From: Candidatus Heimdallarchaeota archaeon
GTDB lineage: Archaea; Asgardarchaeota; Heimdallarchaeia; Heimdallarchaeales; Kariarchaeaceae
DNA length: 32,000 nt
Direction of reading: 5' to 3'
NCBI GenBank assembly: GCA_030149205.1
Contig: JASBSB010000006.1
Location: 540,001 to 572,000 of the forward strand
The position numbers and the translations under genes were made by a program. Shown piece after piece: positions 25,063-32,000 of the stretch (positions are counted from its first letter, which is position 1; the number at the start of each line of letters is the position of its first letter). A model generated the notes under the pieces. It was not told the DNA's origin. It made no database searches and was given only the letters and a program-made list of their open reading frames with translations.

Positions 25063-25572
25063 ATGAGTATCCAGAATCCCGCAAGAAAAGGCCCGAAACG
25101 CGTATGGAAAGGATACAGAAACCTTAGGGTGCCTCTTGAGCTTTTCGAGGATGTAAAAAGATATCTTGAAGAGATCAAAATGGCATACCTTGGAGAGGAT
25201 GAAGAAAGGGTAATGGAATTTCGGAAAAGAGTCTCAACCACCCTATCACCAGAGGATAAAGAGCTGCTTAATCAGATCCCTGCTCTGCGACAGGAAATTA
25301 ACAGGCTAAAAGAAGAACTACAAACTCCAAATGTTTTATCAAATCCACTCTCTAACTATTCTCGATTGACTTCTAAAGAGAAAATCAAACAATTTCTATT
25401 TGAGCATTCAAACCAAAGATTTACAACGATTGAGATAGCACAACAGCTGTCTATGCCAGATGCCACCTGTAGACAAGCTTCCAGAGAGCTTTCTCAGGAA
25501 GACAATACAATTGTTCAAATTTCGGGTAGACCAAATCGATATTTTCATAGCAATATTAATGAAGAAAATTGA
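25063..25572 (+). CDS. Putative DNA-binding regulator: RHH-like N-terminus, coiled coil, winged helix-turn-helix
   Basis: YRNLRVPLELFEDVKRY (strand-helix, RHH-like), heptad segment LRQEINRLKEEL, and a C-terminal KIKQFL...FTTIEIAQQLSMPDATCRQASREL...GRPNRYF winged HTH. Confidence 0.7.
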   Translation: MSIQNPARKGPKRVWKGYRNLRVPLELFEDVKRYLEEIKMAYLGEDEERVMEFRKRVSTTLSPEDKELLNQIPALRQEINRLKEELQTPNVLSNPLSNYSRLTSKEKIKQFLFEHSNQRFTTIEIAQQLSMPDATCRQASRELSQEDNTIVQISGRPNRYFHSNINEEN

Positions 25573-25653: not shown

Positions 25654-26649
25654 ATGGACACAAGACAACTCTTGACGCGAGGAGCAACTATAGTAATTGA
25701 TCCCCAACAGATAAGAATGACACCAGATGAATACCTGGCAGCCTATGGTTCGTATATGGACACAGTCTGTTTAGTCGCAAAATCTCAGGCGGGAACAACT
25801 TACTACCCAAGTAACTCTGCACCAAGAGATGAGGATTATGGTCAATTCTTTTCATCTTTTGCACAAATTGCCACAGACATAGGAATTAAGGTCTACGCAA
25901 TGTTTCATTCAACACATGACAAATATTTTTCCAAAAATCCAAATTTCCAGCTTGTGAATAACGGAGGAGAACCTGTCCCTGGATGGGTATGCCCTTCACG
26001 GGAGAATTATTGGTTGTATTTGGCGGAATTGTGTGCAGAAGTTGCTGAGTTTCCTATTGAAGGTATTATCCTGACAGACCTGGCTTATCCAAGAGAAACC
26101 ACCTGCTTTTGTGAAAGTTGTAGAAGGGTTTTTTCACAACGAAATAACATGGATAGAGACTTCTCACTAGAAAGATTACAGAGAAATGATACTTTGTTTC
26201 ACAAATGGTTAACCTTCCGAACCAATTCCGTAAATAAGTTAATTTCAACAGTTGTCAACAGGGTACATCAGATCAAAAAAATTGATGTACTCCCTGAACT
26301 CCTATTAGATCTACAGACCGGGCTTTTAGAAGGTTCATTACGCCATTTCGGACAGGATTACAACAGTATCAGACAGGTCACTTCACACATACTCATTCAT
26401 TTATTCCCTTGGTCTCCATTCCCAAGTACGGAAGAAGAAATAAATATGCTCTCTGAAACTTTGGGTGAATTTGCTGAACATACGGAAACTACAAAAACTT
26501 CATTATACATCTGGGATATCACGGATACAAAATTCAACTTTGCACAAAGCATCAAAACCAACCTGAACTCAAAAGAAATTTTTGTGCTTGAGGAAGAACC
26601 TATAGACTTTCTTGATAGAAGATCATTATATCTTGGTCTTGGTGTTTAG
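25654..26649 (+). CDS. Glycoside-hydrolase-like TIM-barrel protein (GHL10/GH42-like) with CxCxxC cluster
   Basis: WVCPSRENYWLYLAELCAEVAEFPIEGIILTDLAYP followed by CFCESCRRVF, then WLTFRTNSV; no signal peptide. Confidence 0.65.
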   Translation: MDTRQLLTRGATIVIDPQQIRMTPDEYLAAYGSYMDTVCLVAKSQAGTTYYPSNSAPRDEDYGQFFSSFAQIATDIGIKVYAMFHSTHDKYFSKNPNFQLVNNGGEPVPGWVCPSRENYWLYLAELCAEVAEFPIEGIILTDLAYPRETTCFCESCRRVFSQRNNMDRDFSLERLQRNDTLFHKWLTFRTNSVNKLISTVVNRVHQIKKIDVLPELLLDLQTGLLEGSLRHFGQDYNSIRQVTSHILIHLFPWSPFPSTEEEINMLSETLGEFAEHTETTKTSLYIWDITDTKFNFAQSIKTNLNSKEIFVLEEEPIDFLDRRSLYLGLGV

Positions 26650-26769
26650 AGTCAACTGATCTTCCCAAATCTGAACAATTAAGGTTATGATTTCCATGTT
26701 AAACAGTGGAACCTCACTAGCTCTGTTGATCCTCAAAATGACTCATCTATTAAATATAAAACTACAATT

Positions 26770-26876
26770 CTACAGTAATTCGCAGCTCTTCTTCATATGT
26801 ATGATTCCCATACCTAAGCCTACCTCAGGAACCCATCTTAGAAAAGATTTATATGAAGTATCCAAATTTATTTAGC
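26770..26876 (-). pseudogene. Decayed duplicate of the 3' end of the NAD-dependent epimerase gene
   Basis: The minus strand reads *INLDTSYKSFLRWVPEVGLGMGI, versus YMNLDITKLSSLGWVPEVSLAEGI in 27815..28069 (12/22 identical from NLD to GI). There is an in-frame stop at the Tyr position and no start codon. Confidence 0.75.
26814..26837. repeat. 24-bp direct repeat, copy 1 (copy 2 at 27883..27906)
   Basis: CTAAGCCTACCTCAGGAACCCATC vs CTAAGCTTACCTCGGGAACCCATC, 22/24 identical, offset 1069 bp. Confidence 0.85.
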
Positions 26877-26937
26877 AGAATACTTTGGTACAAATTGATG
26901 AGGTAGTTAGACGTCTTTCAAAAATTTCAAAAGTTAA

Positions 26938-27672
26938 GTGTGCTTCTATAATTATATGCAAACAGCTAATATGAACTTAAAGAAATCAAAACGAGGAGGA
27001 AATGATAATAAAAAAATTTTAAATTATGTACTTATATTTAATATTTTTATGTCCTTTATGATATCTGCCTTTGCAGGATCCAATTTCTTTTTGTATATCT
27101 TATTAGCTTCAAGCTTCGTTCCGCTGTTTGCAATATTCTATTATGCTTTATCAGTTAATATTTTTCACAATGGCGATGAAGAAAATCATTTTTCCAAGAA
27201 GAAAATAAATTTTACTCTTAACAAACTCATACAATCCATGATTATCTTTCTTATTGTATTTTTATTAGTAACACGACTACCTTTTATAAATTCAAATATA
27301 GTTTTCACTCCTTTGGGGTCTCCATTTGAATTGGGATTGCTTTTAATGCTCACATTATTAAATATATTATCTAGCATTCCCACTATTGTAATCATGTTCT
27401 CATGTTGGATAATAGTGAAAAACTTTGATTACAAAACACAACGTGTTAATGTGGACGATAAGAAAGCATTGAAAGGGTTGATTATATTTGGTAGTTTTTA
27501 TTTTTTGAAATTTATATTTGAAACCATTTATGCAAATGATGTATTAGAAAAGGATTTACAAGGGATCGAATTTCTTAAAGGTAATGCTTACATTCTCTTG
27601 ATCCTTGATTTAACATTAACCATAATTTACTTTATTTTCTTTATTCCCTTGTTTAAGAAGAAGCAATTTTAA
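26938..27672 (+). CDS. Hypothetical polytopic membrane protein (about 6 TM), very AT-rich; start uncertain
   Basis: 244-codon ORF dominated by Phe/Ile/Leu segments. The GTG start is uncertain and downstream ATGs are available. Confidence 0.65.
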   Translation: MCFYNYMQTANMNLKKSKRGGNDNKKILNYVLIFNIFMSFMISAFAGSNFFLYILLASSFVPLFAIFYYALSVNIFHNGDEENHFSKKKINFTLNKLIQSMIIFLIVFLLVTRLPFINSNIVFTPLGSPFELGLLLMLTLLNILSSIPTIVIMFSCWIIVKNFDYKTQRVNVDDKKALKGLIIFGSFYFLKFIFETIYANDVLEKDLQGIEFLKGNAYILLILDLTLTIIYFIFFIPLFKKKQF

Positions 27673-27814
27673 AGGGATTAGGTCGACTGCTTTGTAATTT
27701 CCTCTGAACTCTTCAACACCTTAAGATGAGTAAGGTAGTATAGAATTATGAACCCGTTCATGTGTGAATTACATTAGATTTGTTATCGCCCTTGATTATT
27801 TCTCATAAGAATAA

Positions 27815-28566
27815 CTAATGAATATTGACCTTCAATTCTTTCGAAATCCGTATCCATTCCACGTATCGTTTAATCCCCTCAGCTAAGCTTACCTCGGGAA
27901 CCCATCCAAGCGAGGAGAGTTTTGTTATATCTAGATTCATATAACGCACATCCCCCTTCCAACCTCTTTCCCCACCTGTGTATATACGCTTCACTTTATC
28001 CTCACCAAACAATTCAACGATGAGCAGATTTGCAATATCATCCACTGTGTAAGTCTTTGGAAAAGCCATATTGAATGCTTCAAACTTTGACGAATTTCGC
28101 GAACCTGCGGTTAGGAATCCCTTAACACAATCATCAATATAAAGATAGGATTAATTTCTGGTTCCCCATATACGGTTCCTCCAGAGGCTGCAAATATAAC
28201 ATCTGAAATGTCTTGAGACCTTGCAAACTCAAGCATTTTCATTGAACCAACCACATTCTGCATAAAGTCAAAGTATGGTTTATTTACAGATATTTTAACA
28301 TCTGGTTGAGCTGCAAGGTGAACAAGGACATCATATTTGAATTCACTTACCTCCTTTCCCATATCTCCAGTGATATCAAGGTTATAATATTTTATCACAT
28401 CTTGCTCCAGATGATCTTTAATGTATCGGGTATCAGTATGTGCACTTTGATTGTCAACAATTACTAAATTTGAGACCCCTAAATCTAGTAGTTTGTCGAT
28501 CATATGGGAACCGATAAACCCTAATCCCCCAGATAAGAACACAGACTTGTTCTTAAAATAATTCAT
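27815..28566 (-). pseudogene. NAD-dependent epimerase/dehydratase (extended SDR, GalE-like), disrupted by an internal deletion with frameshift
   Basis: The 5' part from ATG 28566 has SGGLGFIGSH, HLAAQPDV and ASGGTVYGEPEINP, then runs out of frame. The 3' part, in another frame from 28150, reads SYLYIDDCVKG...AFNM...GWKGDVRYMNLDITKL..LGWVPEVSL. The intervening YxxxK catalytic segment is absent. Confidence 0.9.
27883..27906. repeat. 24-bp direct repeat, copy 2 (inside the epimerase 3' end)
   Basis: See 26814..26837. Confidence 0.85.
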
Positions 28567-28721
28567 ATGTTTATATGTAAAAAATTTTTTCGAAAAAAGT
28601 ATTAGTATTATCAAACATAGTTTTTATAAAAAGAACATTTATATATTGAATTTTTATTCATTTGGTTAACAAAAATTTCACACAAAAAAAATAAATTAAA
28701 TTGTTTTTAGAGATTTATAAG

Positions 28722-29591
28722 ATGGTGATTTTTTTTCAATGGTATTTATTAATATCCCTACTCCTTTTCCCATTATTCACAATTGCCTGGTATTTCAAAG
28801 TTAAATGGAGATCGTTTTCTGCCACTCCATTTAGTATAAAATTAAATATTTCTGAAATTAAGCTTAATGTCCCAATATATGGTCGTTTTTGGAAGTTTTT
28901 CGGAGATTTATCTTTTCGTATTTTTCGGAATTTGTCTATGTATCTGTTGATTTTTTTTGTTGTATGTGTTGGATTGTTAGATCTATTGAATAAATCCAAT
29001 GTTAACAATATAATTATGCAAGTTGTTCCATTGAATTTGGTCTTTTGGATAGTAATTTTGATAATTTTCATCCTATCACTCTTAATTCATGAAATCTCTC
29101 ATGTTTTGGTTGGATCAGTAAACGGCATTAAACCTACACACATCCATTTTATTTTCACACCACTTATACCAATATTTGGTTTGGCAATTGAATTTAAAGA
29201 CCCAGTCAAAGAGTTAGTAATAAAACATTATGATCTGTTAGAAGATTCGGATTTCAAAAACCTAACATATGATGAATTTTCTGTTTTGAAAAATTACCCA
29301 ACGAAACTAAACCAACTTGGTGCAATTTCAAGTGTAGGAGTTTTCTCAAATTTGATAATTTTTTTAATAGGCTGGATGTTTGCTACCACACATTTCGTAT
29401 TTCTGTTCATTGCGTTAATAAATGGGATAATTACCTTACTTAACTTATTACCCATCTATATTGTTGATGGATCTTCAATACTCAGATACTCAACATCTTT
29501 AAAAGGAGATGAAAATTTAATGAATCGATTAGAATGGTTAATCTATTTTATGACTATGTTAATCATAATTTTTTATCTTATGCCAAAGTAA
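28722..29591 (+). CDS. M50-family (site-2 protease) intramembrane zinc metalloprotease, catalytic motifs intact, no PDZ domain
   Basis: HEISH (29088-29102), ISSVGVFSN and NLLPIYIVDG (from 29442). The N-terminal PFSIKL...RFWKFFGD resembles archaeal/eukaryotic S2P. The ATG at 28722 is preferred. Confidence 0.88.
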   Translation: MVIFFQWYLLISLLLFPLFTIAWYFKVKWRSFSATPFSIKLNISEIKLNVPIYGRFWKFFGDLSFRIFRNLSMYLLIFFVVCVGLLDLLNKSNVNNIIMQVVPLNLVFWIVILIIFILSLLIHEISHVLVGSVNGIKPTHIHFIFTPLIPIFGLAIEFKDPVKELVIKHYDLLEDSDFKNLTYDEFSVLKNYPTKLNQLGAISSVGVFSNLIIFLIGWMFATTHFVFLFIALINGIITLLNLLPIYIVDGSSILRYSTSLKGDENLMNRLEWLIYFMTMLIIIFYLMPK

Positions 29592-29611
29592 CTCACATAA
29601 CACTAATAGCA

Positions 29612-30817
29612 TCATCTTACACGTAAAGTTATTGCTTTAGAATTATCTCCTAATCTCCACACCATAAATTGTTTATTCCTTTCACTCATTGTTTCAAATT
29701 CAATTGGTAGCTGGAAAACAACACTAAAAATCCATTGAAACTTAATTTCCAGCTGATTTTGAGACTGATAGAAAAATGAGGTGCCGAAAAGGTATGTGAG
29801 CCGAGATAATATAATTTCTTTGAATGCTTTGATTGCCATTATAAAAATATACAAAAATAGTGCAAGGAAGATAAGTGCAGTGATATAAGTAAGGAAATGA
29901 TTCGCCTTTATAAACATAGAATAAATAATCAGTGACAATAGAATCATTATTATGCTTACGAACCCAAATCTCAATATCAATTCAATAATTATGTAACTTG
30001 TTATTCTAATCTTTGGAATTACAACTCTTGAAATGATTTTGTCAGATTTGTTAAAACTTTCTACCTTTAAGACTTGGAAAGGCTCATAGATTCTTCCATT
30101 TTTAAAAAGTGTTGTACTTTCAAAAATAACCTGTTTCATCGGAAATATTTGTGATAGGAGGTTATATGTTCTTATCCCTTTAAACCATATTGGGATTAAA
30201 ATTAAATCAGTTTTTATTCCTTCTTCAACAAAAAATAAATTGTGAAATTTTTGTTCGTATACCCAAATAATGTTGAATGAAACTATATTCCTAGAAACAT
30301 ATATTTTTGACCCTTTTTTTAATTCATACCTTACCTTAAACTCACGTCTCCAAAGAAATTTATGTGTGGCATTTATTTGCAAACTATCTTCCTTATCTTT
30401 GATTGACAATAAACTTTCATAAGGTTCTTGAGCAATTATAAGTACAAGAAAACTAAAATAAGATCCACTAATACTAAAAGTAATGAATGAGAAGGACAGA
30501 TACAATGACCTGTTGACCAACAAGATGCCAATCACAATAATAGTCCCCAATAGCCCTCCATAACCCACCGCAAACTTATGTGAATAAAAACCCAAACCTG
30601 TTAAAGTATTAGGAAGAAAAAATAATATTAATAAGAACAGTAGTAAATTAAGAATAATCATTGAAATTTGCCAGTTTAGGTCTGTTAGGTTTAAAAATTG
30701 ATCTAATGCATATAATCCAGCACTTAAAGCTCCTAAATAAACTATAATTATAAACGACAGTAAAGAAACATGAAATGAATACCCTCTAAATAACTGAATT
30801 TTTTTTATTGTATCCAT
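29612..30817 (-). CDS. Hypothetical polytopic membrane protein (4 TM, soluble domain, 2 TM, soluble tail)
   Basis: 401-aa ORF; hydrophobicity pattern read by eye; no family recognised. Confidence 0.75.
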   Translation of the reverse strand: MDTIKKIQLFRGYSFHVSLLSFIIIVYLGALSAGLYALDQFLNLTDLNWQISMIILNLLLFLLILFFLPNTLTGLGFYSHKFAVGYGGLLGTIIVIGILLVNRSLYLSFSFITFSISGSYFSFLVLIIAQEPYESLLSIKDKEDSLQINATHKFLWRREFKVRYELKKGSKIYVSRNIVSFNIIWVYEQKFHNLFFVEEGIKTDLILIPIWFKGIRTYNLLSQIFPMKQVIFESTTLFKNGRIYEPFQVLKVESFNKSDKIISRVVIPKIRITSYIIIELILRFGFVSIIMILLSLIIYSMFIKANHFLTYITALIFLALFLYIFIMAIKAFKEIILSRLTYLFGTSFFYQSQNQLEIKFQWIFSVVFQLPIEFETMSERNKQFMVWRLGDNSKAITLRVR

Positions 30818-30857
30818 TTTTCCTATCTTTGAAATTTTATAGAACTTCTAATAAAAT

Positions 30858-30874
30858 TATTGTTTTAGGGGTGA
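30858..30874. repeat. Direct repeat TATTGnnTTAGGGG(G)TGA, copy 1
   Basis: TATTGTTTTAGGGGTGA here and TATTGAATTAGGGGGTGA at 31327..31344; G-rich in otherwise very AT-rich intergenic DNA. Confidence 0.6.
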
Positions 30875-31075
30875 ATAGTAGGAGGTTATCTCTCATTTAA
30901 GTGAATCAACATCTTTTTGTAGCCTATACCAAGGAGAAATGTAAGGGTGGAACAAATTTTGAATTTATAAAAAATTGCTTAATCAAATTTTGAAATTTTA
31001 GATTCTCTGATTTTTAGTTTTTAAATTCTGATATATTCTGATAAATTTTGAAACTTTTTTAATCTTAACAAATAT

Positions 31076-31228
31076 ATGTCATTATGGGAGATACTAGGTT
31101 GGGGTGCTTTAATAGTTGCTCTTGGTGCATTGGTGATAGCTTCAGCCCCTGTACAAGTAAATCCAGCAGTAAGTCTTATTTTTTGGATACTCTGGACGTA
31201 TGGTTTAGGTCAAGACCTATCTGATTGA
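31076..31228 (+). CDS. Unannotated 50-aa hydrophobic peptide (below the ORF-track cutoff)
   Basis: ATG 31076 to TGA 31228 gives MSLWEILGWGALIVALGALVIASAPVQVNPAVSLIFWILWTYGLGQDLSD. It is visibly more GC-rich than both flanks, fills the gap between two genes, and has two hydrophobic helices separated by a PVQVNP turn. Confidence 0.7.
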   Translation: MSLWEILGWGALIVALGALVIASAPVQVNPAVSLIFWILWTYGLGQDLSD

Positions 31229-31326
31229 CCCTAATCATTTTTATTACAATCGCAAATATAATTTTAGTTTAGCATACTATAACTAATTAATGAAAAAAAG
31301 GATTTTTGACATAAACTTAATTCGGA

Positions 31327-31344
31327 TATTGAATTAGGGGGTGA
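31327..31344. repeat. Direct repeat TATTGnnTTAGGGG(G)TGA, copy 2
   Basis: See 30858..30874; offset 469 bp. Confidence 0.6.
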
Positions 31345-31365
31345 GGACTAAAAGAATTTAGATTT

Positions 31366-31998
31366 TCATCCATTCTCAGTTTCTTTTAAAATTCTAGCAT
31401 ATTTCATAATATCAGCAGCGGCATTTCCCCACTCTTGTGTGTCCGCTGTTCCCTGATAAAATAAAACGATAGAATTTGCAAATGCGAATAAACCGGCTAG
31501 AGACCAGATGAAGGTAAGACTAAAAGCAATTAAAGTCAAAATCAAGCTGAATAATAGTCCTGAGCTAGAAACAGCACCTAATTGAAAAACCACGGATGGA
31601 TAATTCACAAGAAGGGATGACTCATCTTTTATTGGGTTTTTACTTTGATAATTTTCAGATAGACCATAGTGTTTTATCATCAAAGGTCTGACAATTTCCT
31701 TAAAAGATATGGTTGTCAAGAAGATTGGAAAAATTGGAACAATAAGGATCTTTAGTTCCTTGGTTTGTATGCCATTGGATAGGGCAAACAATAATTTACC
31801 AAGATCATGGCAGAATGAAGAGAAAAACAGAAAAAAAATAAAATAGATAAGGAAGGGTGATCCAAGGGGGTTAAGAAATTCCTGTAATTTGTCTGCGAAC
31901 CTTAAAATGAAGACTATGATAGCTCCTGATACAGCAAATAGTACAAGAGTAACTGACAACACATTATGTTTTAAAATTTTAAAGGACAGATTTCCAAT
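31366..31998 (-). CDS. Degenerate M50-like paralog (pseudo-protease); 5'-partial (frame is open to the window edge)
   Basis: Aligns with 28722..29591 (IGNLSFKI vs FGDLSFRI; KHYGLSE...KN...DE.S.L.NYP....QLGAVSS.G). HExxH is replaced by HDLGK (31795-31809) and NxxPxxxxDG is absent. Confidence 0.8.
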   Translation of the reverse strand: MGNLSFKILKHNVLSVTLVLFAVSGAIIVFILRFADKLQEFLNPLGSPFLIYFIFFLFFSSFCHDLGKLLFALSNGIQTKELKILIVPIFPIFLTTISFKEIVRPLMIKHYGLSENYQSKNPIKDESSLLVNYPSVVFQLGAVSSSGLLFSLILTLIAFSLTFIWSLAGLFAFANSIVLFYQGTADTQEWGNAAADIMKYARILKETENG

Positions 31999-32000
31999 TG

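Follow-up and report, generated by a model that had tools for sequence, protein, structure and literature searches.

We analyzed a stretch of 32,000 nucleotides from a Candidatus Heimdallarchaeota archaeon (family Kariarchaeaceae; assembly GCA_030149205.1, contig JASBSB010000006.1, forward-strand positions 540,001 to 572,000, in our numbering G000:C2:540001-572000), hereafter called the window, using its list of open reading frames (ORFs) and the sequence beyond its end. The host assembly is of the metagenome type, with a completeness of 93.5% and a contamination of 2.8%. At the end of the window, and reaching slightly past it, lie two paralogous genes of the M50 or site-2 protease (S2P) family, of which one retains the zinc site (hereafter M50a) and the other has lost it (M50b), with two further genes for membrane-associated products between them:

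28722-29591 (alternative TTG start at 28701), + strand: M50a, with the motifs HEISH and NLLPIYIVDG and the Pfam domain PF02163
29612-30817, - strand: mem401, a 401-aa orphan membrane protein, convergent with M50a with 20 bp between them
31076-31228, + strand: pep50, a 50-aa ORF encoding two hydrophobic helices
31366-32199 (199 bases past the window end), - strand: M50b, 277 aa, the paralog of M50a without zinc site

The strands of M50a, mem401, pep50 and M50b alternate (+ - + -), and the four genes therefore constitute, by their layout, four transcription units and no operon. M50a and mem401 converge across 20 bp, mem401 and pep50 diverge from a spacer of 258 bp, and pep50 and M50b converge across 137 bp. 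An initial annotation of the same DNA had described these genes as an M50 protease with intact HEISH and NLLPIYIVDG, a 401-aa polytopic membrane protein, a gene for a 50-aa hydrophobic peptide and a dead M50 paralog. All four are present in the ORF list and the descriptions hold: the motifs of the first are confirmed, with PF02163 above its cut-off, the second is an orphan, the third has gene-like codon statistics and the fourth, which carries HDLGK and NSIVLFYQGT at the places of the two motifs, matches M50a with an E value of 7e-32.

M50a has 289 residues when read from its ATG and 296 from the alternative TTG. Its HEISH sequence (residues 130-134, window 29088-29102) falls inside the hydrophobic segment 101-140, which places the HExxH motif in a transmembrane helix, and NLLPIYIVDG (residues 248-257, window 29442-29471) has the NxxPxxxxDG form that carries the third zinc ligand; with 38.6 bits, the match to the Pfam profile PF02163 exceeds the cut-off of 27.2. 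The sole sequence match in the PDB is the S2P of M. jannaschii (3b4r), a weak one (E 0.11), in which HELGH and NLIPAFPMDG line up exactly with the two motifs of M50a. Hydropathy predicts about six helices. The AlphaFold2 model, made without alignments, has a predicted local distance difference test score (pLDDT) of 48 and gave no meaningful match with Foldseek, and a profile search of the PDB with the two-sequence alignment of M50a and M50b was empty. Judged by its motifs, M50a is a highly divergent intramembrane zinc protease of the minimal site-2 (M50) type whose active site is intact, and it is most likely active as such. It resembles the minimal archaeal S2P (MEROPS M50B, PF02163; M. jannaschii MJ0392, PDB 3b4r) in having HExxH in a transmembrane helix with a beta-hairpin region after it and, farther on, a helix with NxxPxxxxDG, and in lacking PDZ and CBS domains. 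It differs from it, however, in its extreme divergence, in an extra N-terminal helix with a conserved TPFSIKL loop and in a soluble insertion of about 45 aa (IKHYxLxE...NYP), which it shares only with M50b.

The relationship between the two paralogs extends over their full length, with 32% identity over 270 residues, and includes motifs found nowhere else (TPFSIKL, NGI, PxxPIF, IKHYxLxE, NYP and QLGAxSSxG). In M50b, HEISH is replaced by HDLGK (residues 131-135, window 31795-31809) and NLLPIYIVDG reads NSIVLFYQGT, followed by a 10-residue insertion, while the last helix is gone; three of the four catalytic or ligand positions are lost. M50b scores 10-14.7 bits on PF02163, below the cut-off, and lacks the motifs of an active M50 enzyme. 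We compared this divergence with a simulation of neutral, AT-biased drift of an M50-sized frame starting from M50a, in which stop-free frames remained in 0.3% of the runs at 80% identity and in none at 57%. Because neutral drift leaves almost no stop-free frames, M50b appears to have been kept as a protein and not as a decayed gene; according to this model its frame is held open by selection through nearly all its divergence. Lost catalytic residues are thus combined in M50b with a scaffold under purifying selection, the two properties expected of a pseudoprotease, and on the strength of its sequence we regard it as a candidate pseudoprotease rather than a wreck. Since the two paralogs lie 1.8 kb apart and are found nowhere else, local duplication is the simplest explanation of their origin, and from their opposite strands we infer that it was an inverted one.

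The recurrence of these genes was followed in 60 related genomes, drawn from the genus, family, order and class of the host (the three genomes of the same genus are 82-89% complete), and in large protein collections. A six-frame search of the 60 genomes did not find M50a, a word-indexed search of 5.8 billion protein clusters returned only self-hits for it, and a hidden Markov model of M50a and M50b matched, among 1.84 billion representative proteins, only the two proteins themselves. Searches of PHROGs, PADLOC and NCBIfam with the proteins of this region gave nothing usable. The host genome has three other M50 genes, which are conserved. The M50 protein of the relatives closest to M50a, on contig 57 of a congener (G001:C57), has 25% identity to it over 207 residues, and its host counterpart is not M50a but the gene at C4:750369-751538; a dead partner is missing from both loci, as are genes resembling mem401 or pep50.

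The G001:C57 locus (L044, 443-4464) itself encodes a 330-aa M50 protein (HELLH / NLFPMAFFD) and, next on that strand, an orphan polytopic membrane protein of 659 aa, the M50 gene being divergent from an upstream epimerase-like gene whose N-terminal part seemingly lies in another frame. Since M50a too is divergent to an epimerase gene, remote synteny between the two loci was considered, and was rejected because the counterpart of the G001:C57 gene is C4:750369-751538 and the epimerases are unrelated. A recurring association of M50 with a large polytopic partner was likewise dismissed, because the host's other M50 loci do not show it.

The small gene between the two M50 genes has the composition of a coding sequence. 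Its G+C content (GC) is 0.41, against 0.23-0.25 in the flanks, and the rise coincides with the ORF; GC at the three codon positions is 0.55, 0.45 and 0.24. A codon log-odds measure for which 1200 long ORFs of the host genome served as training set gives pep50 +0.32 per codon in frame, where genuine in-frame pieces of 50 codons have a mean of 0.244 +/- 0.10; it is negative in each of the five remaining frames, including that of an overlapping 46-aa ORF. A run of oligo-T lies 3' of the stop codon. These statistics suggest that pep50 is probably genuine and encodes a membrane peptide of two helices, which would have no basic and three acidic residues and a PVQVNP turn; a recognisable leader is absent from its sequence. 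There is no pep50 paralog in the host genome, scans of genome, viral and metagenome contigs revealed no homologs, and the collection of 5.8 billion protein clusters contains no match to it, its own sequence included. Co-folding of M50a, zinc and pep50 gave a score of 0.24, the mark being 0.32, a result that counts neither for nor against binding.

The hydropathy profile of mem401 indicates four helices, separated from a further two by a soluble loop domain of some 145 aa, and after these a tail of some 60 aa. Loop domain and tail are both predicted to be beta-rich; mem401 has in-frame codon log-odds of +0.19. It has no Pfam match even at an E value of 10 and none in NCBIfam, PHROGs or PADLOC, and its AlphaFold2 model, also made without alignments, has a pLDDT of 47 and only meaningless Foldseek matches. 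Homologs are missing from both the cluster collection and the 60 related genomes searched in six frames. The sole paralog, a protein of 402 aa with 24-27% identity, is encoded on contig C1 of the host (65370-66575; L005 7370-8578) and shares with mem401 the loop-domain motifs THxF..RxFKVxY and KFH..F.VE.G..L.L.P.WF.G as well as motifs of the tail. The paralog has an F420-type oxidoreductase on one side and an MFS transporter on the other, its vicinity contains neither an M50 gene nor a small hydrophobic ORF, and it too is absent from the 60 relatives in the six-frame search. When the alignment of the two proteins was run against genome, viral and metagenome contigs there was no convincing match; the one considered, in a metagenome-assembled genome of Ignavibacteriota (CP053447.1, our L047; 38% over residues 28-97), covers a purely hydrophobic stretch and was set aside as probably due to chance. 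The mem401 family consists of two members, both private to the host genome.

The four-gene set is thus known in one genome only, so that co-occurrence cannot be shown. The initial annotation had proposed co-occurrence in Asgard and other archaeal genomes as a check of its view of the locus, and the set appeared in no other genome or collection searched. It had also held that homologous M50 genes standing without the partner genes would speak against that view, and this is in part what we find, in that the nearest M50 relatives, and also the mem401 paralog, lack the other components.

Comparison with the congeners shows that the four genes belong to a larger block of DNA, which comprises the following additional features:

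26650-32846, ending just before RadA (the window holds 26650 to 32000), no strand: species-specific insert of low GC, defined by synteny and GC
26938-27672, + strand: ORF244, an AT-rich orphan gene for a polytopic membrane protein (ORF list, Pfam, hydropathy)
27815-28614, - strand: broken gene for an NAD-dependent epimerase/dehydratase, the divergent neighbour of M50a
30954-31057, + strand: repeat AAATTTTGAA(A/T)YTT (AAATTTTGAAAYTTT), three copies in 105 bp, in the divergent spacer of mem401 and pep50

In the three genomes of the same genus (L020, L021 and L022) the orthologs of a glycosidase-like gene (25654-26649 in the window) and of RadA lie next to each other in divergent orientation, separated by about 240-280 bp; in the host the orientation of the glycosidase-like gene with respect to RadA is reversed, so that the two point the same way, and 6.2 kb separate them. 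It is this adjacency in the congeners that identifies 26650-32846 as a species-specific insert. Among 6.2-kb windows of the host genome its GC, 0.304, ranks in the bottom 1.7%; the genome contains no second copy of this DNA, and the insert lies inside a contig of 669 kb with native genes on both sides. The sequences around it show only AT-rich chance matches to att-like or terminal repeats, no integrase or transposase was seen, and scans of the region with Rfam and for tRNA genes were empty. Past position 32000, where the initial annotation had advised reading on, follow the remainder of M50b, a spacer of 647 bp and RadA (32847-34145, + strand).

Parts of the insert are decayed. The broken epimerase gene keeps a 167-aa N-terminal and an 84-aa C-terminal part while its middle is missing, and the Pfam profiles Epimerase and GDP_Man_Dehyd match it at profile positions 2-139 only; the genus contains no ortholog of this gene, and within the family the closest match is 47% identical. 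The 3' end of the epimerase gene is present a second time, in decayed form, at 26755-26890; this stretch can be aligned to 27824-27960, with a core match of about 25/27 bases. The two copies are 1.07 kb apart, the decayed one upstream, with ORF244 as the single gene between them, an arrangement suggestive of repeated insertion events and of an insertion scar. Further copies of the AAATTTTGAAAYTTT motif are found at 26921-26935, directly upstream of ORF244, and at 30237-30251, inside mem401; the whole window has eight matches against 2.9 expected by chance, five of the eight being in the insert. The AAATTTTGAA repeat may be an operator or promoter element and a shared regulatory site of the insert, for which it is weak evidence in DNA that is AT-rich all around.

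A few observations concern the neighbouring native DNA. The homolog of the gene at 25063-25572 comes after an E1-like gene in the congeners G001 and G003. The RadA gene (L002 6847-8145, equivalent to window 32847-34145) encodes 432 aa with a long N-terminal extension, the open frames of the congeners having 430-439 aa, and a second RadA, with about 393 matched residues, is present on contig C8. At L002 11097-12320 a gene for an 81-aa ubiquitin-like protein ending in GG-LEY abuts a 325-aa E1-like gene, surrounded by archaeal informational genes which, recognised by eye, we take to be aRF1, S27e, PCNA and GINS-like. Such a neighbourhood would fit an archaeon of the Asgard type.

The explanation that we prefer, with a probability of about 0.45, is that of a private insert carrying a pair formed by the live protease M50a and the selected pseudoprotease M50b, in which mem401 and pep50 have no demonstrated link to the pair. 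A 6.2-kb insert private to the species, at the break of synteny between the glycosidase-like gene and RadA, would have gathered AT-rich orphan genes for membrane proteins, and within it a very divergent minimal M50 protease would have been duplicated locally and inverted. M50a would have kept its complete zinc site, whereas M50b would have lost the catalytic positions and been retained by selection as a membrane protein. As a pseudoprotease, M50b might still bind what M50a binds, be it a transmembrane client or, through formation of a heterodimer, M50a, and would then tune or block cleavage by M50a as iRhoms and plant EGY3 do in their families. Precedents for the elements of this proposal exist in dimers of S2P (Schacherl 2017, as cited in PMC9263693), in the plant S2P pseudoprotease EGY3 (PMC9355673) and in the control exerted by inactive proteases of the iRhom type (PMC3149277). 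Like EGY3, an S2P-like protein without HExxH, and the iRhoms, which are inactive rhomboids, M50b has a selected scaffold and lost catalytic residues. Those proteins, however, have partners that are known and are conserved in clades of large size, whereas M50b is a singleton adjoining its active paralog, with a role that is inferred. The genes mem401 and pep50 would be at most candidate clients, pep50 being the better one because of its small size and its helix-breaking PVQVNP turn. Several points weigh against this explanation. For pep50 and mem401 there are no relatives from which selection on them could be measured, and the structure models are too poor to show a retained binding groove in M50b, which could have taken a role unrelated to M50a. 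The close spacing of the genes and the motif common to the spacers of pep50, mem401 and ORF244 may, moreover, leave room for a wider co-regulation.

The initial annotation had instead seen at this locus a self-contained peptide-processing module, in which M50a would process its substrate pep50 into a signal, a toxin or a bacteriocin-like product, M50b would be a scaffold, receptor or immunity factor, and mem401 would serve export or immunity. This proposal can draw on the gene-like character of pep50 and its place between the two M50 genes, on the divergent spacer with a thrice-repeated motif that pep50 shares with mem401, on the presence of all these genes on one acquired insert, and on the known part of M50 enzymes in peptide maturation, of which daptide systems are an example. 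A small peptide gene near an M50 protease is indeed found with daptide MpaP/DapP, with B. subtilis YydH (the yydFGHIJ epipeptide locus) and with Enterococcus Eep, and the daptide protease model NF041824 picks up M50a faintly, with 21.6 bits for a cut-off of 300. In contrast to those systems, the locus has no RiPP (ribosomally synthesized and post-translationally modified peptide) recognition element (RRE) or PqqD domain, radical-SAM or other tailoring enzyme, ABC exporter, operon or recognisable leader. The absence of an ABC ATPase and a modifying enzyme, already pointed out for the window by the initial annotation, holds also for the 12 kb beyond, where ABC transporters and leader-recognition domains are equally lacking. 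What distinguishes a RiPP or bacteriocin cluster, namely a precursor with a leader, a tailoring enzyme or exporter, co-transcription and a gene set conserved across genomes, is not found here; without a leader or basic residues, pep50 is also unlike typical membrane-active bacteriocins, and the mem401 paralog stands alone. With one genome, four transcription units and relatives of the partners that occur without the set, the module as proposed is unsupported and we consider it unlikely. A further reading, in which the live/dead S2P pair works as a unit, with M50b capturing or presenting pep50 or gating M50a as a heterodimer and M50a freeing a membrane-derived peptide signal or toxin, appears to us more doubtful still. 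Regulated intramembrane proteolysis of the RseP/anti-sigma kind involves the same protease family, but the insert has no PDZ domain, site-1 protease, membrane-tethered regulator or gene for a sigma or transcription factor.

At the other extreme, the insert could be a dump of single-gene cassettes, independently acquired or fast-evolving and without mutual dependence, in which M50b would serve a role unrelated to that of M50a. Every gene is set apart by an orientation and a spacer of its own, ORF244 sits inside the duplicated 3' end of the epimerase gene as after a separate insertion event, the epimerase is broken and the mem401 paralog occurs in a different context, all of which fits such a picture. 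It accounts less well for the two M50 paralogs, whose exclusive occurrence 1.8 kb from each other argues for local duplication, and live/dead pairs of paralogs that are kept adjacent often interact; we hold this explanation to be possible though rather unlikely. Simple decay or artefact, with M50b recently dead, pep50 a chance ORF and the region misassembled or contaminated, might be suspected from the metagenome origin and contamination of the assembly, from the clearly broken epimerase next to M50a and from the absence of pep50 from the protein collection even as itself. Yet the insert is embedded in its 669-kb contig with native genes on both flanks, M50b has accumulated many changes at both motifs in an open frame of 277 codons, and the codon statistics of pep50 are those of its own frame, so that we regard this as very improbable.

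The locus is real and slightly unusual, an ultra-divergent live/dead M50 pair on an acquired and partly decayed insert, and to call its four genes a new system is premature. Being a singleton in one uncultured genome, it is of limited value in that nothing general follows from it. An active protease beside a selected copy without zinc site, with a small membrane peptide between them, nevertheless makes a compact set that is testable by expression. The pseudoproteases of the site-2 family that we found described are those of plants, namely EGY3 (PMC9355673), and the natural substrates of archaeal S2P are still unknown (PMC9263693). If the live/dead pair were truly to work as a unit, it would represent a prokaryotic counterpart of the iRhom type of control and the first defined substrate pair of an archaeal S2P.

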